From IMG/VR virus record IMGVR_UViG_3300021494_000019, positions 1-60,270 of that record: a stretch of 60,270 nucleotides of DNA, one strand, 5' to 3'. The DNA is from a virus. Taxonomy: Duplodnaviria > Caudoviricetes. Shown in pieces: positions 5,969-60,270 of the stretch; within the stretch, counting starts at the first letter, position 1; every line of letters begins with the position of its first letter. The translations under genes were made by a program, and so were the position numbers. The notes beneath the pieces are model-generated. The model was not told the DNA's origin. It did no database searches and saw only the letters and a list, made by a program, of their open reading frames with translations.

Positions 5969-6607
5969 ATGACTCCTGCAAAAGACCTTTTCAAGACAAT
6001 GTTTCGGGCTGAGGAAGTTTTATCTTGGCCGATAGATCCAAAGTCCAAATACTATCACAAACCCGATTCAGACTTTCAAATCTTTATCGGAAGTCCACAT
6101 CTTATTAAAGAGAATGTTTGGCTCGGTGATAGAGTTTTTATCGGTCCAAGCACTCTTATCAACAGCAACGTAGTAATTCAAAAAGATGTTTTTATCGGCC
6201 CTTATACAACAATCGAATCTAACATCACTATCGAAAAATATGCACGTATTGGTTCTTTTTGCCGCATAGCAGCCAATAGTCTAATTGGCCGTGATGCTCG
6301 GGTAGAAAACAGCGTAATACTAGGGCGCAATTTCACTTTAGCTCCTGAGAAAGACATACCAAGCGGAATTCTGTTAGATAGTAATCTCAAGCTACAATGC
6401 TCTCTGCCGGTGATTTACGGATCAAAGCACGCTGTCTATTGGCGTAGCAAAACAAGATTGGCGATAGGCTGTGATGCCTATCCTATTGACTTTTGGCTTG
6501 AAAAGTATAGAAAGATGGGAGAGATCGCTGGCTATAGCGAAAAGGAGATAGAGGAATATTATGAGTACATAAAGTTAATGATAAAACTTGGTCAACCATT
6601 CAACTAA
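5969..6607 (+). CDS. hexapeptide-repeat (left-handed beta-helix) protein, copy 1
   Basis: Repeated [LIV]-G-x-x-x-x hexapeptides; C-terminal IGC...W...EY domain. Confidence 0.85.
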   Translation: MTPAKDLFKTMFRAEEVLSWPIDPKSKYYHKPDSDFQIFIGSPHLIKENVWLGDRVFIGPSTLINSNVVIQKDVFIGPYTTIESNITIEKYARIGSFCRIAANSLIGRDARVENSVILGRNFTLAPEKDIPSGILLDSNLKLQCSLPVIYGSKHAVYWRSKTRLAIGCDAYPIDFWLEKYRKMGEIAGYSEKEIEEYYEYIKLMIKLGQPFN

Positions 6608-6624
6608 CTTTAAGGAGGATTTAA

Positions 6625-7263
6625 ATGTCCTTAACAAAAGTTCTATCACGACCTAAATATCCACTGGAAGAAGTCCTATCTTGGCCAATCGATCCAGAAG
6701 ACAAATATTATCATGAACCAGGCACGGATGTAAAAATTTTCATAGGCAATCCAAAGCTAATAGGTAAAAATGTTTTTCTTGGTGATCGTGTCAAAATAGG
6801 CCATAGAACAGAAATAGACGATAATGTTTGGATACAATCCAAAGCAAGTATTGGTTCAAAAACATATATCGGAACGCATTCTACAATAGGAGAATATGTT
6901 CGCATCGGTGATTTATGTTTCTTGTCTCGAAATACAACTATTGAAAATCTTGCTACAGTAAGTTCAAGAGTTTATTTAGGACCACATTTCACACTCGCTT
7001 CAGAGCAAATTGTAGAGCCTAACGTTGATTTGGCTGGTTATCAAAAGATGGTTCGTTCTATGCCCATAATTCGAGGCTCTCAACACGAAGTATTTTGGTA
7101 TGATAAACGGATGTTGACGATAGGCTGCATTCGCTTATCCATAGAAGATTGGCTACAAAAATACGAAGAGCTGGGCAAAAAACACAAATACACTGAAGTG
7201 CAGATACAAGAATATCTTAGCTACATAAAAGCCATGAAAAGCATTGGTCCTCCATTCAAATAA
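6625..7263 (+). CDS. hexapeptide-repeat protein, copy 2
   Basis: Same length (212 aa); shares EEVLSWPIDP, KYYH, LGDRV, IGC and GxPF with 5969. Confidence 0.85.
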   Translation: MSLTKVLSRPKYPLEEVLSWPIDPEDKYYHEPGTDVKIFIGNPKLIGKNVFLGDRVKIGHRTEIDDNVWIQSKASIGSKTYIGTHSTIGEYVRIGDLCFLSRNTTIENLATVSSRVYLGPHFTLASEQIVEPNVDLAGYQKMVRSMPIIRGSQHEVFWYDKRMLTIGCIRLSIEDWLQKYEELGKKHKYTEVQIQEYLSYIKAMKSIGPPFK

Positions 7264-16040: not shown

Positions 16041-17420
16041 ATGAAAATAGCAATTGATAAGATAAAGATTGGCGAACGTCGCAGAGAAGATTTAGGTGAC
16101 GATTTTGAAGATTTGAAAACAAGTATCAAACTTCGAGGTCAGATGAATCCAATCTTAATCTCCAAAGAAGATTATCAACTAATCGCAGGCTTTAGAAGGT
16201 ACTCATGTTGCAAAGAGCTCGGAATGAAAGAAGTCGAAGTTAGGTTCTATGAGAACCTTTCCGAGATCGATAAGAAAATCCTTGAGCTTGAAGAAAACAT
16301 CCACAAAACCCTAACCTGGAAAGAGCGTGCGATGTTAGTTCAAGACATCCATCGCCTCAAACAAGAGCAACATGGTGCCGCAAAACAAGGCCATGCCGGA
16401 AAAGGCTGGGGAATCGCTCAAACTGCCGAATTGCTCGGAATGCCAGTATCGACAGTCTCTGAAGATCTAAACTTGGCTGCATCAATCGAAGCGGTTCCAG
16501 AACTAACCGCTCTCAAAAGTCGTCGTCAGGCATTGAAAACTACAGATAAACTTTCCGAAATGGCAATTTTAGCCGAATTGGCGAAAAGGGAGGAGGCAGA
16601 GAAAAAGCTTGAATCGAATTTGTATGTCTTGTTGCATGGCGACGCTGTTAAACTGATTAAGGAAAAAATTGAGGACGAAGTTGTCGATTTGATTATTTTT
16701 GATCCGCCTTGGGGCATCGATGTCGATAAAATTGCATCTGCTCGTGGTCCTCGCAGTGAAAAGACGTCTTATCGAGATGATACCATCTTCACATCACGAA
16801 AACTTGTCGAAGATCTTCTCCCCGAACTTCATCGAATTTTGAAGCCGGATGGGCATATGTATATCTTTTACGATTTTTCGCAAAGAGATTATTATATCAA
16901 CATACTCAACAACTATTTGTATTATACCAGCCCTGAAACTATGATAAGTATGCTCTCACCTCAGCTCCAAAAAGCTATTGCTGATGAAATTGCTCAAAAG
17001 CAGGCAGAGCGTTCATGGAGTTTCCATGTCGAGGAGAAGCCTCTTATCTGGATTAAAGAAGGTGGAGGTTTTACTGATTTCGAGCATAAGTTTATGCCCC
17101 GCTACGAATCTTTTCTCTTTTGCAGCAAAGGCATTAAAAAACCTTTGAGTTCCGCATGTTCAGATGTTTTCGTTTATAACCGTCCTGTGACGACAGAACG
17201 CATCCACACCCAAGAAAAACCAAGAGAACTCATCGAGCGTTTAATTCAACTATCTACTAATCAAGGTGATTTGGTTGTCGATCCATGCGCAGGCAGTTTT
17301 GTAACGGCCGCCGCAGCAACTAAACTAAAACGCAAGTCGATTTCTATCGAACTCGATAAAGATTGCTATTTACGAGGAGTTGAGAGGATGAAAGGATTTT
17401 CCTCAAAGGAGGATAAATGA
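16041..17420 (+). CDS. ParB-like (ParBc + HTH) fused to N6A/N4C DNA methyltransferase
   Basis: N-term L..SI...GQMNPI, LIAGFRR, LEEN, HTH; C-term DPPW, H.QEKP..L, VVDPCAGS. Confidence 0.9.
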   Translation: MKIAIDKIKIGERRREDLGDDFEDLKTSIKLRGQMNPILISKEDYQLIAGFRRYSCCKELGMKEVEVRFYENLSEIDKKILELEENIHKTLTWKERAMLVQDIHRLKQEQHGAAKQGHAGKGWGIAQTAELLGMPVSTVSEDLNLAASIEAVPELTALKSRRQALKTTDKLSEMAILAELAKREEAEKKLESNLYVLLHGDAVKLIKEKIEDEVVDLIIFDPPWGIDVDKIASARGPRSEKTSYRDDTIFTSRKLVEDLLPELHRILKPDGHMYIFYDFSQRDYYINILNNYLYYTSPETMISMLSPQLQKAIADEIAQKQAERSWSFHVEEKPLIWIKEGGGFTDFEHKFMPRYESFLFCSKGIKKPLSSACSDVFVYNRPVTTERIHTQEKPRELIERLIQLSTNQGDLVVDPCAGSFVTAAAATKLKRKSISIELDKDCYLRGVERMKGFSSKEDK

Positions 17421-19762
17421 CTTATGTCGAAGTAATGCCTGATGGTCCGATTAATTCGCCAATTGTTCTGATTGGCGAAGCACCAGCTAAGAAAGAAATC
17501 TTCAGAGGAACACCATTCGTCGGAAGTGCAGGAGAATGGTTAGATAAATTTTTGGCTTTAGCTCAGCTTGATCGTTCAAAAATTCGTCTAACCAATCTCA
17601 GCAAACGACGAGCTCCAGGAGATAAAATTTCCAACATTCCAAGAGCCGAATTGGAAGAATGGCGGAAGAAACTTATTTATGAATTAAACATAATGCCAAA
17701 TATCAAGGTCATCGTTCCTCTCGGCAACTATGCCATGGAAGCAGTTACCGGTCAATCGGGAGTTTCAAAATATCGAGGAACTCCTATGCACCCCATCTCT
17801 GACATTCGCCATGATTGTGTAGTAATTCCAACATACCATCCTTCAAACATGCATTATGACTATCGTCTTTGGCCCCTGATAGTAGCCGATTTAACTAAAG
17901 TTAAGTTAATGCAAACAAATAACTTCAACTTTACTTTTCCACAGTTTAATTTCAAAATCAAGCCGACGTTTGATGAAGTAATGGAAACTTTGGAAATGCT
18001 TGAGCAAGAACCTGACCGCTTAATGACAATTGACATCGAGAACCCACGAGGTTTGTTGTCAGCCATCGGCATCGCTTGGTCGAGATATGACGCTATTTGC
18101 ATTCCCTTCTACTTAGGAAATGGTGATAGCTATTGGACCCTCGAACAAGAAGCCGCTATCTGGAAACGCCTTGCTGAAGTGTTGCCTAAGCTTAACTTAG
18201 CGAATCAAAACGTAATGTTTGATTGGTCGGTTATGCATGACCATGGCATCGATCTAAAAATGCCGACCTGGGATCCGATGTTAATGCACCATTGTCTTTA
18301 CAGCGAGATGCCTCATCGTCTCGATATTATTACGAGTATCTACACCGACCTACCCTATTATAAAACTGATGAATCTGACGAAGGAGCTTCGCTAAAAGGC
18401 TCAAGAATTGTCTATGGCGATGAAGAACGTCATTGGACCTATAACTGCTATGACGTTGTCGGAGCTCTTTGGGCCATCGAGGAACTTAAAAAAGAGCTCG
18501 AAGAAGAAAAAATGCTTGATGTCTACATCCGTTTTTATGCTGAAATGATTCCGCCCCTTTATCGGATGAACATCGAAGGAGCTCCGGTGGACGTTACATT
18601 GATAAAAGAGATCGCCAAAGATTTCAAGAAACAAATCGAAGATAATCTTAAGTACATCAAAGCCGAAACAGGCGTTGAGGTTTATGTGCCGATGCCAGGC
18701 GAAAAACCAATTTCGCCTAAGAAAAGACCTGATCTTATAAACCTAAATTCGCCTCAGCAAGTAGCTAAGTTGTTATACGATTATATGGGCATGGCACGCT
18801 ACAAAAGCGGCTCTACGGGTAAGGATATTTTAGAGAAACTCGCATATAAATACAAAACCGAAGTGCCTTTAAAGATCATTGAAATAAAATCAAACCGAAA
18901 ACAGATCGGACTTTTCGCTCCAGAAAACATTTTAAATGGCCGAGTTTATTGCCAATTCTCCCTTGGCCGAGCAAAGACAGGTAGATTAGCTTCTCGCAAG
19001 AGTTTCAATAAGGCAGGCATGAATCTTCAAAATGTTAAACGAGGTATTCAAAGAAGATTCTTCATCGCAGAGAAAGGACATGTTTTACTCTACCCTGATC
19101 AGAAAGGTGCTGATGCTCGCATTGTCGCCTATTTGTCGAGAGACAAAAAGCTAATCGATCTTTTCGAATCCGGCAAATCTATTCACATCGAAAATGCCAA
19201 GAATGTCTTTGGCGTCGAGGTAACTAAAGACAGTGAGCTTTATTTAGTCTCTAAACGTCTCATTCATGGCGGCAATTATGGCATGGGGCCAATGCGATTT
19301 GCTATGTTATCCGGTTTATCGTTTTCTGAAGCTAAAAAACATCTTGAAGCCTATTTTAAAGCCTACCCAGGTATTCGAGATGTTTTTCATGCCTATGTTC
19401 GAAGGCAGATAACTAAATATCGAATGTTATATAATCCCTTTGGCCGTCGCATGGTGTTTTTCGGACCAAAAGATTATCGCACTTTCAACATTGGCTATTC
19501 GTTCATCCCTCAATCAACAATTGCCGATTTGAATAAGATTGCCTTGAAGTTCATCGATAAATACTACAAAGTCTTGTTGGAGCTTCACGATGGTATTTCT
19601 ATATCTGTTCCTAAGAACGAAATTAAGTCTGCCTTGGAAGTCATCGAGGAAGCCTACTCAACAGAAGTTGAAATTTGGGGAGAAAAACATCAGATTCCCG
19701 TAGAAATAGCTATTGGCAACAATCTTGACGAAATGGAACCAATAAGCCTTAAAGACTTCTAA
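17417..19762 (+). CDS. polA: DNA polymerase A with N-terminal uracil-DNA glycosylase-like and 3'-5' exonuclease domains
   Basis: GEAP...PFVGSAG and YHPS (UDG family 4-like); DIE, N..FD, YN..D; TGRLAS, NLQN, motif A D, K....GGNYG, HD. Confidence 0.92.
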   Translation: MTYVEVMPDGPINSPIVLIGEAPAKKEIFRGTPFVGSAGEWLDKFLALAQLDRSKIRLTNLSKRRAPGDKISNIPRAELEEWRKKLIYELNIMPNIKVIVPLGNYAMEAVTGQSGVSKYRGTPMHPISDIRHDCVVIPTYHPSNMHYDYRLWPLIVADLTKVKLMQTNNFNFTFPQFNFKIKPTFDEVMETLEMLEQEPDRLMTIDIENPRGLLSAIGIAWSRYDAICIPFYLGNGDSYWTLEQEAAIWKRLAEVLPKLNLANQNVMFDWSVMHDHGIDLKMPTWDPMLMHHCLYSEMPHRLDIITSIYTDLPYYKTDESDEGASLKGSRIVYGDEERHWTYNCYDVVGALWAIEELKKELEEEKMLDVYIRFYAEMIPPLYRMNIEGAPVDVTLIKEIAKDFKKQIEDNLKYIKAETGVEVYVPMPGEKPISPKKRPDLINLNSPQQVAKLLYDYMGMARYKSGSTGKDILEKLAYKYKTEVPLKIIEIKSNRKQIGLFAPENILNGRVYCQFSLGRAKTGRLASRKSFNKAGMNLQNVKRGIQRRFFIAEKGHVLLYPDQKGADARIVAYLSRDKKLIDLFESGKSIHIENAKNVFGVEVTKDSELYLVSKRLIHGGNYGMGPMRFAMLSGLSFSEAKKHLEAYFKAYPGIRDVFHAYVRRQITKYRMLYNPFGRRMVFFGPKDYRTFNIGYSFIPQSTIADLNKIALKFIDKYYKVLLELHDGISISVPKNEIKSALEVIEEAYSTEVEIWGEKHQIPVEIAIGNNLDEMEPISLKDF

Positions 19763-53922: not shown

Positions 53923-56454
53923 TTATGAATGTAAAACGCTCCAACGAGCGTTATTAGACGGAGTTTTTAGCCTGGGTTTGTCCATATTCCAAATACTGCT
54001 CCTGTTTAGGTTGCTATTAGCGTTGGAAAAATGAATCGAGGGCGTGGTGCCTTTAGCATCTTTGCAATATTCGTCATCGAGAAAAGCGTACATCATTGCA
54101 TCAAGATGGTCAGGAGATTGGCCCATGCCTTGTTTAGACTCAATGAGAATCTTTCCGTTGCGTAAAATATAATGCAAATTCCCAAGTTCAGCAATTAGTT
54201 GTTGAGGAATGTTTTTGCAGTATACGTGAGGCAAGATAGTTCTTAGGTTCCAATATCCAAGAGCACGTAAGTTTGCGATGGTATCTTTATGTTTATCTGG
54301 AACCTTAGCCTGACCTAAGACTGGCTTGACAATCTTAGGAAAAAGACGTTTAAGATTGTCATAAACTCCTGCTCCGATTCCATTAGCGTCAACCTTCACT
54401 GAAGTTGGATTGAAGGATTGAACAAATTCAGTTACCCAGTTGGTAATATCTACCGTATCGCCTATGCTGCCGCTTAGTGGAAATTCTTCAAAACCTAAAA
54501 CTTTATAGCCTTTTCGGATGCATAATATAGTTTTATTAATACTGCGAGCAATATCTAATCCGAATTCGATTGGTATGCGTTTGCCTCGATCATCATAAAG
54601 CTCAGGCCCATTATTGCGAAACTTTTCGATGTCGTCGGGAGTGAATAAGAGCATAGACGAATCCATCTTCGGAAAGTTGCCCATGACTTTTATTTGATAG
54701 ATTGGATGATCCTCGCCATAGGTGGCCAGCATGGTTTTCAAATAACGCTCTTCGACAAAAGGAGAATTTCGGCTATCGACGTGAAAAAGTCTATAAAGAC
54801 CTTTCATCATAGGATTATTAAACACGTCGTAGAAATATCCGGAAATTTTGGTCGGATTGCTTGTCAAAATACAATAAGCCTTCTTTCCTGTTAAGGCTCC
54901 TTCTATGGCGGGGAAGATTGCATCGGGGACACCTGAAGCTTCGTCGACGATGAACATAAGGTTTTCCTCTGAATTACCGGACCACATACAAAAGCCGTTT
55001 CTACGTGTAAAAATTAGATGATAAGGAGCGACATCTACACAATAAACTTTTCCTTTGTATGGAACTTGATACAAATTCTCCCGTCTAATAGTGAGGTAAG
55101 CCTTATTATCTACATATTCAGCTACTCTATAACGAACATGCTTTGTTTGTACTAATCTTCCTCGAATATAACTGGGTTTTTTCTGGTTCTGTTCGGGAGT
55201 ATATTTTCTAACGGACGCCTTTCCTCCAACCTTAAAAATTAGCTCTTGAATATCATCCGCTAATTTTTTGGAAGATGTGTAATAAATCTTTATGCCTTTT
55301 CTATTAATATAACCATCTCCATGCAAATAACCATTCAAAAATCTTCTAATGAGTTCAGGAGAGGCATCTTTAACATACTGAGGTACGAACTTATTTAAAG
55401 ACGATGTTCCGAATTCTTCTAAATGATGCTTAAGTTGTGGAGAGTTGATATCGATACGATCCGCTCCAAAATCTTCGTTAGCATAAGTATGTGCTACAAA
55501 ACCAAGTTGATTCGCAAGATATTCTATTAAAGGAAAAACAGCTTCATCTTTTTGACTAAGACTAATTCCGTAAGGAGTACAATATCCTTCGGCAAGATAA
55601 AAACCTAAGAAGTAAAACCATGAAGGTGCAGATGTAGTAACTTTAGGATATTTTTTCTGTTTACCTTGATAAGCGGGGATATCGAAAGTCGAGAAATCTT
55701 TACCTTTCCAGATGAAAGTATTATTTATGTACCAATGACGGTATGTTATATTCTGAATTTCATCCAACTTCCAATCAGTAAGTTTTCCATGACTTTTATT
55801 TTTGTACAACATCTTATGATTAGGCGTAACACAAAAATCTAAATTTTGATGTTTAGTTGTGTACATCATACCGTCATAATCATATTCCATTATCTTAGAA
55901 GGTCGATAATATGAAGCCTCTCCAGTATCAGGGTTTAAAGAGAGTACTTTGTCATCAGATTGCAATTCGTAAAAATACTTCCATCCTTTGTGGGTTAGTA
56001 TCTCAGTGTCTTGGCTCATGCAGTGAAATCCCTGAAGTCCTTCCGCAACCTGACCCGTTGGTGATACTCTGGCCGTTCGAGCTACGGCATACCAATCAGG
56101 AGCGTACTTAGTTACGGCGACTCTGGTTCCTGTCCAGGTCAATAGCTGAGACAAAAATTCGCTTTCTCGAATATTACGATGGTGGGAAGCCCATAAAATA
56201 TCAAATAGCTGATGTTGACTTGGAGCAGTTGTCGGAATGCGACAGAAGGGCTTCGTGCAGAGAAACCAACATGTAACGTCACTCAACCAGAAAGATTTAC
56301 CGACTCCGGAACCGGCTCGGATGGCGACGAAGTGATCTTCGACCAAGGCCTTAAATGCTTCCGATTGCCATTTGTCGTATTTATGACCTAAGATATCCTC
56401 ACCAAAAGCTTCTGGATTGCTTTCGTAAAACTGCAAGGCTTCTTTCGAGAGCAT
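53923..56454 (-). CDS. terL: terminase large subunit containing an intein
   Basis: GSGVGKS, TAP..HQ, IVDEASG, SNP, G.DIAR, SPD..DA. Confidence 0.92.
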   Translation of the reverse strand: MLSKEALQFYESNPEAFGEDILGHKYDKWQSEAFKALVEDHFVAIRAGSGVGKSFWLSDVTCWFLCTKPFCRIPTTAPSQHQLFDILWASHHRNIRESEFLSQLLTWTGTRVAVTKYAPDWYAVARTARVSPTGQVAEGLQGFHCMSQDTEILTHKGWKYFYELQSDDKVLSLNPDTGEASYYRPSKIMEYDYDGMMYTTKHQNLDFCVTPNHKMLYKNKSHGKLTDWKLDEIQNITYRHWYINNTFIWKGKDFSTFDIPAYQGKQKKYPKVTTSAPSWFYFLGFYLAEGYCTPYGISLSQKDEAVFPLIEYLANQLGFVAHTYANEDFGADRIDINSPQLKHHLEEFGTSSLNKFVPQYVKDASPELIRRFLNGYLHGDGYINRKGIKIYYTSSKKLADDIQELIFKVGGKASVRKYTPEQNQKKPSYIRGRLVQTKHVRYRVAEYVDNKAYLTIRRENLYQVPYKGKVYCVDVAPYHLIFTRRNGFCMWSGNSEENLMFIVDEASGVPDAIFPAIEGALTGKKAYCILTSNPTKISGYFYDVFNNPMMKGLYRLFHVDSRNSPFVEERYLKTMLATYGEDHPIYQIKVMGNFPKMDSSMLLFTPDDIEKFRNNGPELYDDRGKRIPIEFGLDIARSINKTILCIRKGYKVLGFEEFPLSGSIGDTVDITNWVTEFVQSFNPTSVKVDANGIGAGVYDNLKRLFPKIVKPVLGQAKVPDKHKDTIANLRALGYWNLRTILPHVYCKNIPQQLIAELGNLHYILRNGKILIESKQGMGQSPDHLDAMMYAFLDDEYCKDAKGTTPSIHFSNANSNLNRSSIWNMDKPRLKTPSNNARWSVLHS
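54973..56022 (-). mobile_element. Intein with LAGLIDADG homing endonuclease (350 aa)
   Basis: GFH|CMSQDTEILT...VTPNH...FLGFYLAEG...FLNGYLHGDG...VYC...SGN|S. Confidence 0.92.
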
Positions 56455-56999
56455 TAATTAGTCTCCTTAGCCATAGGCATCTTGGCCGGAAGCAGTGGTT
56501 GGTTCGTGGATAGTGGTTGGTCGGATAGTGGTTTGGCATCGGACGCCTTCGGCTTTCCGTCAATGACTTCACCACGAACTCTTTTCTGATATTTTGCTTC
56601 ATAGGCTTCGACAATGGCATCGGCCAAATCCGCCGTAGTCGGACCGTGTTCCATGGTGGCTCCCGATGCTTTCAGGACATCCCAAACATTTTTCGATCTG
56701 AGAGTTGGCGATATCTCGCTACCGCCCAAGGTGCCTTCGACTACCATCTCACGAGCTAACAAAGCTGCATCGACCGCCGTATCTTGAAGAATTTCCATCG
56801 CATCTGCCCTCGTCTGAACGAATCTTTCGTTGACTTGGGACATGATGTTCCAATAGGCTTCTTCAAATAACGGCTCTTTTCTCAGCACCGATAAGCGGGA
56901 TTCGGATATGCCCATTTCGGCACAAACCTCTTGAGGGGTTTGGCCGCATACGAGTCGCCGAATAATGGCGTAATGCCGTCCGGTTAGCTTTTTCAGCAT
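56454..56999 (-). CDS. terS: putative terminase small subunit
   Basis: N-terminal HTH; coupled to terL. Confidence 0.7.
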   Translation of the reverse strand: MLKKLTGRHYAIIRRLVCGQTPQEVCAEMGISESRLSVLRKEPLFEEAYWNIMSQVNERFVQTRADAMEILQDTAVDAALLAREMVVEGTLGGSEISPTLRSKNVWDVLKASGATMEHGPTTADLADAIVEAYEAKYQKRVRGEVIDGKPKASDAKPLSDQPLSTNQPLLPAKMPMAKETN

Positions 57000-57076
57000 G
57001 GCCCTCTTTAATATCCATCTTTAGTTGTTTAATAACATCTCGCATCTCTGAATACATCTTAACTTCTCCTACGTTA

Positions 57077-57105
57077 AGAATAACACACTTCTTATTTTTT
57101 GTCAA
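57077..57105 (-). promoter_or_regulatory. sigma70-type promoter for the morphogenesis operon
   Basis: TTGACA-17 bp-TATTCT with TG. Confidence 0.7.
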
Positions 57106-57280
57106 GTTAATTTTTAATTTGCGGGTTAGGTTGATAAGCTATCACTGTTTGATAGGCTATCACCCGATGCTTAGATTGATGGCCGTTCGCCTCCGGATTT
57201 GGCCGTTCGCTAAGCGAGCTTAGCTTGCTAAGCAAGTTAAAATTTGGGTGGCGGTTGGAGATGGTACGCCCCCGCATTTT

Positions 57281-57450
57281 AGTTAAATTGTTGCATTTTA
57301 TATCAAATTAACATATTTTATATTAAATTAATATCTTTTATGTTAAATTAATATATTTTATAGCTAATTAACATATTTTATATATAATTAACAGCTTTTA
57401 TATTAAATTAACAGCTTTTATATTAAATTAATATATTTTATATCAAATTA
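57281..57450. repeat. AT-rich 20-bp tandem repeat (~8 copies)
   Basis: TATTAAATTAAYAKMTTTTA-like units with exact 20-bp period. Confidence 0.9.
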
Positions 57451-57496
57451 ATCAAAATAACCTATATAGATTAACTTGATTAAATTGATTAAAATT

Positions 57497-57575
57497 ATGG
57501 CATAGCTTATGCAATAGCATAAGATATGCCAAAATGACTTGGCATAGATATTGCTAATAGCGTATAGCAGGCCAA
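57497..57575. repeat. Two head-to-head pairs of sigma54-type GG-N10-GC elements
   Basis: ATGGCATAGCTTATGC/TTGGCATATCTTATGC; TTGGCATAGATATTGC/TTGGCCTGCTATACGC. Confidence 0.75.
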
Positions 57576-57619
57576 AATAAGATTGATAAGTAAGATAGCT
57601 AAAAGCGATAAACCCGGAC

Positions 57620-57653
57620 AAAAAAAGCCCGTACAGTGAAACGCTGTACGGGC
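57620..57653 (-). terminator. Rho-independent terminator
   Basis: GCCCGTACAG/CTGTACGGGC stem with T7 on - strand. Confidence 0.85.
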
Positions 57654-57681
57654 AGTGATGAGAAGACTAATCTTATCTAAG

Positions 57682-57936
57682 TCATATTAAACAAGACTCC
57701 ATTTCAGCAAGTACGTCACGGCAACAACCGTATTCACCCCGTACATAGTAACTGATGAAATCTTTACTTGCCTTGTTAATAAAAGCTATATTAGATAGTC
57801 TTATTAACAGACGCTCATCCTCTTTCAAGGGTTGTCCTAAATCAGACAACCTATCGGCAAGCCTTAAACAGGCTTGACCAAATTCAGCTAACTGTTTCTT
57901 GGTTTGTTCCAAATTCCATAATTCCTTTTCCGTCAT
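57682..57936 (-). CDS. hypothetical protein
   Basis: AGGAG SD. Confidence 0.75.
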   Translation of the reverse strand: MTEKELWNLEQTKKQLAEFGQACLRLADRLSDLGQPLKEDERLLIRLSNIAFINKASKDFISYYVRGEYGCCRDVLAEMESCLI

Positions 57937-57951
57937 AGTTTATCTCCTTTT

Positions 57952-57994
57952 AAAAAATTCCCTTGCCCGATGGTGACGTTACCGGGCAAGGGAA
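57952..57994 (-). terminator. Terminator-like hairpin between the two terminal genes
   Basis: TTCCCTTGCCCG/CGGGCAAGGGAA with T6 on - strand. Confidence 0.65.
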
Positions 57995-58001
57995 GTGAGA
58001 G

Positions 58002-58376
58002 TTATGCTAAGGCTTTGCGTATGACACGCTGCCTTAACGATTCCTTAGACTTGCGAACCCTGAGCAAATCCTCAGGTTTGCCATAGCCTAAGGCCTGTAA
58101 GGTTGAGATTTCAACCTTGGATAACTTGCCTTGTGACCATTTTTTGGCAAGTTTTCTCTTTTCTGAAACTTGAAGCTCACGGCTTGCCTTATAATCTTCA
58201 GCCGCAAGGTCACGACTGAATTTTTTTAAGGCTTCATTTAACACCGCTATAGCATCTTTTTCACCTAAAATTTTGACAGCTTCAGAAACGCTGTCAAATT
58301 CCGGATACCGATAGTTTCCTACAGGTATCCTTTTACGGTTTTCAGTGATCGAAAATTTTTCAGTTAGCTTCTTCAT
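58002..58376 (-). CDS. basic hypothetical protein, homolog of 11779-12054
   Basis: AGGAG SD; shared GEKDA and DY.AS...VSE. Confidence 0.8.
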   Translation of the reverse strand: MKKLTEKFSITENRKRIPVGNYRYPEFDSVSEAVKILGEKDAIAVLNEALKKFSRDLAAEDYKASRELQVSEKRKLAKKWSQGKLSKVEISTLQALGYGKPEDLLRVRKSKESLRQRVIRKALA

Positions 58377-58441
58377 AATTTATCTCCTGCCTGTTAGTGA
58401 GTAACCATAGCCAAAGACTATGTTATGTTACTCTAATTATA

Positions 58442-58469
58442 ACTATATCACATATAATCAAGATGTCAA
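58442..58469 (-). promoter_or_regulatory. sigma70-type promoter
   Basis: TTGACA-16 bp-TATAGT with TG. Confidence 0.6.
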
Positions 58470-58562
58470 GTACTTTTTTCACTTTTTTGCAATTTTTTTT
58501 CTGGAAACCCAAAAAATATCTTACGACAATTTTAGCTAAGAATATAATCCGAACTAAACAAG

Positions 58563-58825
58563 TTGGCCTAAGATGTGTTATAGCAATTAACGTACCAAGA
58601 CAGATAAGTCACTTTGGCAAGAGTATTGCTATATCAATTATCATACCAAGATAGCTTATCTTACTTGGCAAGGTTATTGCAATAGCATAACTTAGGCCAA
58701 CTTATGTTGGCAAGAGTATTGCATAAGCAAATAGTATGCCATAGGACTTGGCATGATGTTTGCATAAGCATAAGATGTGCCATAACCTTTTGGCAAGGTT
58801 ATTGCATATGCATAAGGCGTGCCAG
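58563..58825. repeat. Array of six ~36-bp quasi-palindromes, each two head-to-head sigma54-type elements
   Basis: TTGGCA-N6-TTGC-N4-GCA-N7-TGCCA pattern; 10 of 12 half-sites keep GG-N10-GC. Confidence 0.82.
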
Positions 58826-58829
58826 TTAG

Positions 58830-58977
58830 CTTATTTAACTAATTTATGTTATTTAACTTATTCATACCAGCCGGACAAGATTTAACTTATTTAGCTAATT
58901 TATGTTATTTAACTAATTTAACTTATTTAACCTATTTAACGAATTTAACCTATTTAACTTATTTAACTTATTTAACT
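58830..58977. repeat. AT-rich ~9-bp tandem repeat (TATTTAACY)
   Basis: Direct inspection. Confidence 0.85.
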
Positions 58978-58994
58978 CTCAAACGTAAACCTCC

Positions 58995-59290
58995 CTGTCG
59001 CATCCTGTCGTGGCCAGAATGCCGGCGTGTCGCATGAGTCGTGGCCATCCTGTCGGGTGTCGCATAGCGAATGGCCAGAATGCCGAATAGTCACTTAGAA
59101 TGTCGCCATGATGCCTTCGAGTCGCTTAGAAGGTCGTATCCTGGCTCGATGTCGCCATGGATAGGGTCAGAATGGCCAACTGTCGCACAGCGAGTGATCA
59201 TCTAATCAAGCCATCCTGTCGTGGCATCATGGCACTGTCGCCTGGCCAAAGGCCATCGTGGCTAAAGGCCATCTTAGGAGTGTCGCATAG
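58995..59290 (+). repeat. Cluster of same-orientation (T)GTCG(C) motifs
   Basis: More than 10 copies on the + strand interspersed with TGGCCA. Confidence 0.7.
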
Positions 59291-59495
59291 TAGGATTGAT
59301 AATGGTTGTGTGATATATTATCAACTCGGCCCCTTGGCAAGGTCTAAAATAGGTTACGAAGTGTTTTGAAAAACGTTCAATAACGGGCCAAATCGCCACC
59401 TGGCAAGGCCACGGAAAACGACCCTATATAATGGTACTGGCCCCAGGCCAGAATGGCCTTAGAATTGATAACATATCATATCAATCTAACTTCCC

Positions 59496-59519
59496 ATAAT
59501 TTCGCCGTGACGAAATAGC
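59496..59519. promoter_or_regulatory. GTAATTTCG-N6-CGAAATTAC palindrome (degenerate)
   Basis: ATAATTTCG-CCGTGA-CGAAATAGC. Confidence 0.7.
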
Positions 59520-59544
59520 CATGCGGCTAAAGCCGCCAAGGCTA

Positions 59545-59695
59545 ATGGCCATCATGCCTTTCCAGACTACCCAGGCATCATGCCAAGACAGGTGTTAACG
59601 GCATCATGCCACTTCTGTCGACCCGTGGCCAGGTGGCCGTAGCATCATGCCCTTCCAGGTCGCTAAAGGCATTCTGGTCTCGGCCATCATGCCTA
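59545..59695. repeat. Cluster of CATCATGCC motifs
   Basis: 5 copies, some as the GGCATCATGCC quasi-palindrome. Confidence 0.7.
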
Positions 59696-59996
59696 TTTTG
59701 TCGGTCAGGACAGGATGGCTCCTGTCGGATACCATCTTTTGCGGGTTTTAGTGAACATATGTTCAAAATAAGTTATTGAAATTATTGACAGTTTTAAAAT
59801 TTCCTAACAATTTCGGCCACTTACCAATTACGCAAAATTACACACTTCTTGAAAATTGTAAGATGGCTAAAATAGCCTAAAAATAGACCCTTCCTGGGTA
59901 AGAATTTGCCGATGATCTACCCTCTTTTCCTGCTCGCCAGAGTTCTGAAGTTAGATGGTATGATGGCATGATGGTATTTTAAAAGGTTTTGTAGTG

Positions 59997-60179
59997 ATTT
60001 CAATAGGTTATCAATTCTACAAGTTGTGTAGAATTCTGGCGGTGTAGGTACTTGAAATTATTAGTCTTTTTTTCGGCCCGAAAACCCAAGTCAAATTTGC
60101 TAATAATTTCAACCACTTTTCAATTCCACAGAATTCTACGGGCCGGGCGGCTGGAAAAAGTGCCGGAATTACGGAAGAT
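59997..60179. repeat. Right arm of degenerate gapless inverted repeat (partner 20-202)
   Basis: See left arm. Confidence 0.85.
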
Positions 60180-60197
60180 AGAGAAAGCGACATCTCG

Positions 60198-60221
60198 GTA
60201 ATTTCGCCACGGCGAAAAAGC
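60198..60221. promoter_or_regulatory. GTAATTTCG-N6-CGAAATTAC palindrome (degenerate)
   Basis: GTAATTTCG-CCACGG-CGAAAAAGC. Confidence 0.65.
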
Positions 60222-60224
60222 GAA

Positions 60225-60270
<46 letters not shown>

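Follow-up and report, generated by a model that had tools for sequence, protein, structure and literature searches.

Overlapping face-to-face sigma54-type elements in the control region of an uncultured tailed phage: candidate docking sites for host RNA polymerase

The DNA analysed here (the window) is one complete virus record, IMGVR_UViG_3300021494_000019 (Duplodnaviria; Caudoviricetes), 60,270 bp in length. The elements in question are eight quasi-palindromic units in its main non-coding control region, each of which can be read as an overlapping face-to-face pair of -24/-12 elements of the sigma54 (RpoN) type. Sigma54 promoters are textbook elements. A phage-wide module of overlapping face-to-face sigma54 pairs and arrays is without prior description in the literature searched: a full-text search (supplements excluded) returned no paper on sigma54 palindromes or arrays in phages, or on face-to-face sigma54 pairs.

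The locus and its eight units

Early and replication genes of the window are encoded on the plus strand from about 1.15 to 26 kb (ribonucleotide reductase, a fusion of uracil-DNA glycosylase and PolA, ligase and a ParB_N-methylase), and packaging and structural genes on the minus strand from about 57.1 kb down to 26 kb (terS, terL, a Mu-type portal and a lambda-type tape measure). The two blocks are separated by about 4.3 kb of repeat-rich, nearly all non-coding DNA that spans the ends of the record. Both sigma54-like arrays, A (57497-57575) and B (58563-58825), fall inside this region and flank a small minus-strand cassette of two open reading frames (ORFs), ORF124 and ORF84.

The units have the architecture TGGCA-N6-TTGC-N4/5-GCAA-N6-TGCCA, two in array A and six in array B. 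Half-sites were scored as matches to the 12-position consensus TGGCAYR-N4-TTGCW.

57497..57532, U1, array A: halves ATGGCATAGCTTATGCA / TGGCATATCTTATGCT, centre AATA, both 11/12
57539..57575, U2, array A: left half 12/12; right half TGGCCTGCTATACGCT, 9/12; 5-bp centre
58563..58598, U3, array B: left half degenerate, with the GC lost; right half TGGTACGTTAATTGCT, 11/12
58614..58649, U4, array B: left half 11/12; right half without the -12 GC, 10/12
58665..58700, U5, array B
58707..58742, U6, array B: right half 12/12
58748..58783, U7, array B: left half 12/12
58790..58825, U8, array B: right half TGGCACGCCTTATGCA

All eight units of a preliminary description of this DNA were located in the 2 + 6 arrangement given there, and both half-sites that it quoted are present (58707-58723, plus strand; 58826-58810, minus strand). 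Recounting reproduced its figures: GG-N10-GC is kept in 14 of the 16 half-sites, being lost only in U3 (left half) and U4 (right half), and the paired -12 GCs are separated by 4 bp (5 bp in U2). Start-to-start spacing is 42 bp in array A and 51, 51, 42, 41 and 42 bp in array B.

The exact motif TGGCAN6TTGC was matched seven times in the 60,270 bp, each time inside the arrays. With one mismatch allowed, 22 matches were obtained (14 in the arrays and eight elsewhere; shuffles gave 12.2 +/- 3.6). Consensus scoring with the RpoN-type pattern, which had been proposed as a check, pointed the same way: all 12 sites of the genome that score at least 11/12 are array halves (12 of the 16), and the 13 sites at 10/12 outside the arrays compare with a mean of 13.9 in first-order Markov resamples of the whole genome. 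A chance origin of the arrays is excluded.

Sigma54 character of the half-sites

Positions left unfixed by the palindrome search (described below) were tallied in 238 halves, corresponding to 119 distinct units on contigs other than the window, taken from the listed matches. Position -21 is C (.52) or T (.47), -20 is G (.57) or A (.39), -19 is a purine in.76 of halves, and -11 is A or T in.85 and G in.01. Table 3 of PMC3844500 gives 29 intergenic Salmonella sigma54 sites from chromatin immunoprecipitation on microarrays (ChIP-chip), for which our own count is C17 T11 G1 at -21, G19 A10 at -20 and W at -11 in 27/29. The phage halves copy the sigma54 logo, since the unselected positions agree with these ChIP-mapped sites.

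GC-rich carriers have halves of the textbook form TGGCACG-N4-TTGCA. The sigma54 likeness set out in the preliminary description is thus upheld by the unfixed positions, by the spread of carrier loci over a GC range of 0.30-0.65 and by sites of promoter geometry in relatives (see below). Sigma54 is the host protein known for this half-site specificity, and the simplest view of a motif that stays constant across differing phages, terminases and base compositions is that it is the target of a conserved host protein. Summed over all functional readings, the half-sites are probably genuine sigma54 elements, and sigma54 would be their actual binder.

Neither a Sigma54_activat (PF00158) nor a Sigma54_DBD domain was found in the window, which agrees with the earlier remark that no phage enhancer-binding protein could be recognised there; a sigma54 gene is likewise absent. 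Among 48 carrier records, none had Sigma54_activat at the Pfam cut-off and none had Sigma54_DBD over it, a single 13-bit match to the latter being broken by stop codons. Four of five bacterial genomes that carry the palindrome have Sigma54_DBD, which is near the base rate. A sigma70 reading of the units, with TTGGCA as the -35 element, was rejected: it reached only 9/12 in the scan, and GC-rich relatives are without a -10.

Canonical sigma54 promoters (glnA, pspA and hypA of Salmonella and E. coli) share with the phage halves TGGCAYR-N4-TTGCW, GG and GC exactly 10 nt apart, W at -11, a T-rich stretch from -17 to -14 and the free-position frequencies. They differ in that the phage elements are overlapping face-to-face pairs, whose GCs are separated by 4-5 bp, and form phased arrays, that the phage units occupy one locus per genome and are mostly off promoter distance from an ORF, and that no enhancer or gene for a bEBP (an enhancer-binding protein of bacteria) was recognised in the phage. 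Orphan and intragenic sigma54 sites occur in Salmonella, E. coli and Vibrio, and interference, antisense transcription or help in promoter search have been proposed for them (PMC3844500). The phage sites resemble these in having no obvious tie to a gene start; the orphan sites described in that paper are single, scattered and of weaker consensus, whereas those of the phages come in pairs and clusters, are close to the consensus and have been conserved as a module.

Distribution among phages

IMG/VR was searched with a palindrome pattern in which 19 bases were fixed. The full palindrome was found in at least 120 stretches, and the reversed pattern, used as a control, gave 0 matches. In 596 Gb of genomes of bacteria and archaea a 20-base version matched only 12 stretches, five of which are one Leptospira repeat family. 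These matches (L133, L135, L139, L141 and L143) were set aside because they sit inside a different, larger repeated element: TTGGCACGACGCTTGC-N4-GCAAGAGGAGTGCCAA is central in a GC-rich element some 140 bp long, which has GCATAAC ... GTTATGC at its borders and adjoins small AT-rich gene cassettes; we take this element to resemble integron attC sites.

Among the matches listed, 122 loci have at least one unit. One group of uncultured phages with a Terminase_6 terL makes up 52 of them, and its units precede a 142-aa gene and terL by 230-530 bp; units 230-530 bp upstream of terS were counted in 38-52 listed loci. In another carrier a Terminase_3 terL and an SU10-type portal are immediately downstream of the unit; in a 7.7-kb inovirus-type contig with a Zot-family gene the unit is in the non-coding stretch after that gene; in L071 and a marine group the units are between a minus-strand gene and terS. 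The window siphovirus, where one side of array A is turned to the cassette's 3' end, and contigs of 120-223 kb are also among the carriers. ORF124 and ORF84 had no tblastn match in 132 loci, and clustering of the flanks (+/-3 kb) gave no gene family common to all carriers. As judged from these sequences, the carrier phages are unrelated and the head-to-head pair is a phage module.

By regular expression, one unit was counted in 77 of 121 listed loci, two in 22 and three to six in another 22. In five CheckV-complete records all 28 matches to TGGCAYRN4TTGC fall in one cluster per genome (no more than about 500 bp), with none for the reversed control. In all three of these records that are classed with terminal repeats the cluster is internal, and the window ends resemble an assembly break, so the argument of the preliminary description from a position near the genome end is weak.

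Spacings on the same strand have their peaks at 42 and 54 bp, roughly four and five turns of the helix. The half-to-half offset is 19 in 175 of 202 units, a count biased by the search pattern, and 18 or 20-23 in the other 27; single halves and tandem direct halves are frequent in carrier loci. Because the spacer varies (18-23) and single and tandem-direct copies exist, the half-site is the functional unit, which argues against a dimer reading the whole palindrome. Such a dimeric DNA-binding protein, from the phage or another host factor, would use the 34-bp palindrome as an operator or centromere, and the sigma54 likeness would be coincidental. The palindromic form of the units, the phasing of the arrays at 42 and 51-54 bp, the single cluster per genome and the bracketing of a small operon with family-less products would all suit it. 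The free positions, however, follow the sigma54 consensus, the central spacer is unfixed, and no gene family is shared by the carriers with which a cognate gene could be equated.

The F-plasmid centromere sopC consists of tandem repeats of about 43 bp, each with an inverted repeat. The layout of the arrays recalls it in having tandem units of about 42 bp with an inverted repeat and one locus per replicon. The phage module differs in that its half-site is bipartite and sigma54-matching, that a single unit is present in most carriers and that a ParA/ParB pair is not found next to it; the sole ParB_N domain of the window is fused to a methylase about 40 kb away, and the cassette ORFs are family-less. 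Operator arrays of a dimeric phage repressor would have a fixed half-site spacing and a co-travelling cognate gene, and neither was found here. Recognition of the palindrome by a dimer is considered quite unlikely.

ORF124 was dropped as a candidate binder of the units. It belongs to no Pfam or PHROG family; its relatives number only six among 5.8 billion proteins, all on contigs of 1-2 kb; and its AlphaFold model (pLDDT 77.8), a beta-hairpin with a long helix, gave no fold match in the PDB (best E 2.4).

Within 400 bp of units the density of perfect DnaA boxes is about 13 times that of the rest of the loci (34 in 129,201 bp against 19 in 959,446 bp), and the boxes are concentrated in nine loci with at least three each. 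The units are likely to lie beside an origin, at least in this group. In L105 (1110-1190) and eight further loci at least three perfect boxes (TGTGGATAA) directly adjoin units, and a conserved GTGAATATTCAC palindrome is found upstream of units in L092 and L105. The units could be a cis-element of replication or packaging: bidirectional replication would start from DNA opened or primed by the face-to-face promoters or closed complexes, or the units would mark pac upstream of terS. With this would fit the single cluster per genome, the position 230-530 bp upstream of terS (about 440-500 bp in the window), the unit after the Zot gene of the inovirus-like contig, and the iteron-like AT-rich repeats that flank the window units, in places equivalent to those of the DnaA boxes of other loci. 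The DnaA association rests, however, on nine related loci, and no DnaA box lies in the non-coding region of the window. A TerS-specific site is unlikely in view of the unrelated terS genes of the carrier groups, and priming would still require an activator. The N6 segments of the two arms, non-complementary in the window units, agree across carriers at fewer positions than expected by chance (1.68 identical positions against 2.29 +/- 0.11), perhaps in part through shared ancestry in the largest group. A hairpin, cruciform or RNA reading was rejected on these grounds, and the same figures count against selection of such structures at an origin. A role as origin or packaging element is very unlikely.

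A further arrangement was seen in L026 (2050-6050), a phage contig of 40% GC, where an intergenic module is repeated at least four times at intervals of 0.7-1 kb. In this module a pair of TTTGGCAC-N5-TTTGCT sites stands in tandem on one strand, at a distance of 26 bp, with CTGCCATTTTGGCAG palindromes after it; the whole looks like sigma54-type promoters with an operator or hairpin.

Relatives and promoter geometry

The cassette and its surroundings in the window are as follows.

58442..58469, minus strand: sigma70-type promoter-like site TTGACA-16-TATAGT ahead of ORF124, 11/12, with TG extension
58002..58376, minus strand: ORF124 (P0001), small and basic, from an orphan family; syntenic in relatives
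57682..57936, minus strand: ORF84 (P0002), second cassette gene, no family
57617..57653, minus strand: intrinsic terminator closing the cassette, about 40 bp from U2; 10-bp stem with 7 GC pairs and a T run
57295..57451: AT-rich 20-bp direct repeats (x7.8), iteron-like, on the outer flank of array A
58826..58977: 9-bp repeats ATTTAACTT, 4.1 + 10.9 copies, on the outer flank of array B
56454..57105, minus strand: late-gene start, with sigma70-like site TTGACA-17-TATTCT (57105-57077), a small conserved ORF from 57057 and terS (56454-56999)

Array A is separated from the late-gene start (sigma70-like site, small ORF and terS) by about 440-500 bp. Relatives of the window phage were identified through the portal (L001-L003 and L145; 55-64% identity) and through ORF124 (L146 and L147), and all six have the same layout upstream of terS. 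In L002 (6893-7057) and L145 (949-1104) an ORF of about 50 aa with four cysteines (zinc-ribbon-like) precedes the ORF124-family gene; it is absent in the window.

The ORF124-family operon of the relatives has no sigma70 promoter ahead of it and carries a single sigma54-type site instead. Counted from its -12 C, this site precedes the ATG of the operon's first ORF by 34 nt in L003 (TGGCACGGGAAATGCA), 32 nt in L002 (TGGCACAAAAGTTGCA) and 34 nt in L001 (TGGCATGATATTAGCA), with a Shine-Dalgarno sequence between site and ATG in all three. L146 has an imperfect copy at the same distance, in which GG replaces GC. At this operon-front position the window has only a decayed remnant of the site, together with the sigma70 promoter. 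The single sites of L003 all point outward (7/7): the four left-hand ones face leftward genes, and the three right-hand ones face the operon and terS. An orientation that follows the genes is expected of promoters and is not required of mere binding sites. For unpaired intergenic sites in 66 loci, the gene ahead reads away in 84 cases and toward the site in 54, with no ORF in 36; the bias of 84 to 54 is weak because the loci are related.

These sites qualify the statement of the preliminary description that the units are unlikely to be productive promoters. For relatives it is weakened by single sites in promoter position and by the outward orientation in L003; in the window the units do lie at least 207 nt from the ORF ahead.

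The number of units at array A differs among close relatives. L147, with 94% identity in ORF124, has three units where the window has two, and differs from it mainly in N6, in the flanks and at the degenerate positions -21, -15 and -14; the GG and GC cores are unchanged, as expected from the earlier observation that inner bases vary at fixed spacing. L146 has none. Arrays are evolutionarily labile, with 3, 2 or 0 units at this place.

In the window, L147, L003 and L145 the terminator of the cassette is immediately followed by a unit or array. The design of the window recurs in L059, an unrelated 51-kb contig, where two arrays of about four units each, 1.1 kb apart (1-1420), bracket four small leftward ORFs unrelated to ORF124 or ORF84; this cassette ends in a terminator-like hairpin (read by eye). 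Two of its four ORFs look membrane-embedded. A terminated small cassette between two arrays, found twice, would suit arrays that bind sigma54 or its holoenzyme and never fire, as a cis roadblock or insulator flanking the cassette or as a trans sponge that drains the small sigma54 pool while the genome replicates. The convergent overlapping geometry with up to six tandem units in the window, the labile unit number, the uncoupling of sites from ORF starts across loci, the absence of a phage bEBP from the 48 records and the documented stability of the closed complex (PMC3844500) are all compatible with occupancy of this kind. Against it, a single unit, as in 77 of the 121 listed loci, makes a poor sponge unless genome copy number compensates; sequestered holoenzyme would also take core polymerase that the phage needs; L146 manages without array A; and the single sites of the relatives stand at exact promoter distance and are oriented with genes. 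Occupancy alone, the sponge or roadblock of the preliminary description, is considered unlikely.

Other features of the genome

The 4.3-kb region is a mosaic of at least six kinds of repeats, two AT-rich arrays included. Past array B, TGTCGCA-type motifs occur about nine times between 58980 and 59720 (eye count), a 30-bp unit GTCGTGGCCAGAATGCC... is repeated 2.6 times at 59007-59085, and a near-palindrome GGCATCATGCC was counted by eye about five times at 59545-59700. Motifs of the type GTAGAATTG...TTATTGAAATTATTGACA flank the ends of the record on both sides (1-220; 59760-60270), and the record terminates in (TTA)12.7 T8. The window ends look like an assembly break in repeats within one continuous control region.

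At 600-1140 a strong sigma70-type promoter (two TTGACA and TATACT, about 610-670) is followed by about 480 nt free of ORFs before the first early gene. This stretch may be an undescribed leader or non-coding RNA; an Rfam search of the window, this leader included, gave no match, and a tRNA search of the window gave none.

In the coding blocks, the terL candidate (53923-56454, minus strand, 843 aa) has a LAGLIDADG_3 domain and a weak HINT match in mid-protein, which suggests an intein with a homing endonuclease. On the plus strand a uracil-DNA-glycosylase-superfamily domain is fused to a family A DNA polymerase (17417-19762) and a ParB_N domain to a DNA methylase (16041-17420); two tandem hexapeptide-repeat transferases are found at 5969-7263.

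No match to cultured phages was obtained by blastn with 56000-60270 or with the L054 array, and tblastn with three proteins gave no close relative among them. The best-matching DNA sequencing runs (0.25-0.45 of sampled words) carry the label hydrothermal vent metagenome, and no RNA run was listed among the runs that match the window. The one bacterial-genome contig that matched the portal belongs to a metagenome-assembled genome labelled Bathyarchaeota, and was rejected as a guide to the host.

Discussion

The reading that we tentatively prefer, at rather less than even confidence, is that the units are docking sites for host sigma54-polymerase, or poised bidirectional promoters dependent on a host activator, that were amplified around the cassette. 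The sigma54 holoenzyme makes a closed complex which is stable and is opened by an enhancer-binding ATPase, and some bEBPs that lack a DNA-binding domain activate any sigma54 promoter (PMC3844500). Host sigma54-polymerase would dock on a unit in one of two orientations, each of which excludes the other, and would persist there as a stable closed complex. Firing would follow only after remodelling by a host enhancer-binding ATPase, and would need a host activator because the phage encodes none; transcripts would then leave the unit both ways. Many unrelated phages have the module at one locus, within the main non-coding control region. In the window it would have been amplified to 2 + 6 units around ORF124-ORF84, between the iteron-like repeats and terS, giving more docking capacity on both sides of the cassette. 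Binding by sigma54, firing of the sites and the action of a host activator are inferred.

Several observations weigh against such poised promoters. Convergent promoter arrays would make polymerases collide. A bEBP was found in 0/48 carrier records, so that firing hinges on a host activator. When the loci are pooled, the distances of sites to the following ORF start have a flat distribution without a promoter-like peak. ORF124 of the window comes with a consensus sigma70 promoter of its own, the nearest leftward half-site being 207 nt from the ORF124 ATG, and L146, with 90% protein identity, has only a decayed trace of array A. Finally, A stands at -21 in 4/16 window halves, as against 0/29 Salmonella sites and about 1% of phage halves.

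The nearest parallel to the proposed docking sites is provided by the pseudo-symmetric bidirectional sigma70 promoters described by the Grainger laboratory (PMC12825309, PMC10268837). They too are described as having a symmetric core, two mutually exclusive orientations and transcripts that leave both ways; their symmetry resides in the -10 hexamer and opening is spontaneous. Unlike in the sigma70 case, the symmetry of the phage unit is that of two whole -24/-12 elements of an activator-dependent sigma factor.

A broader proposition is that many phage lineages keep one face-to-face sigma54 locus in order to exploit the closed complex, either as a polymerase trap, which would silence host sigma54 responses or insulate a cassette, or as an element for bidirectional priming or opening of an origin. 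We regard it as doubtful. If true, a polymerase trap or origin element would represent a phage cis-element of a new class.

Metagenomic phages carry the module in abundance; it is short and sharply defined, and could mark host range for rpoN-positive hosts. If the sites bind host sigma54-polymerase, phages may use one master locus to sense the physiology of the host by way of its enhancer-binding proteins, or the stable silent closed complex may serve as a sponge, barrier or origin element. Either use, if true, would be a new way for phages to engage host transcription.

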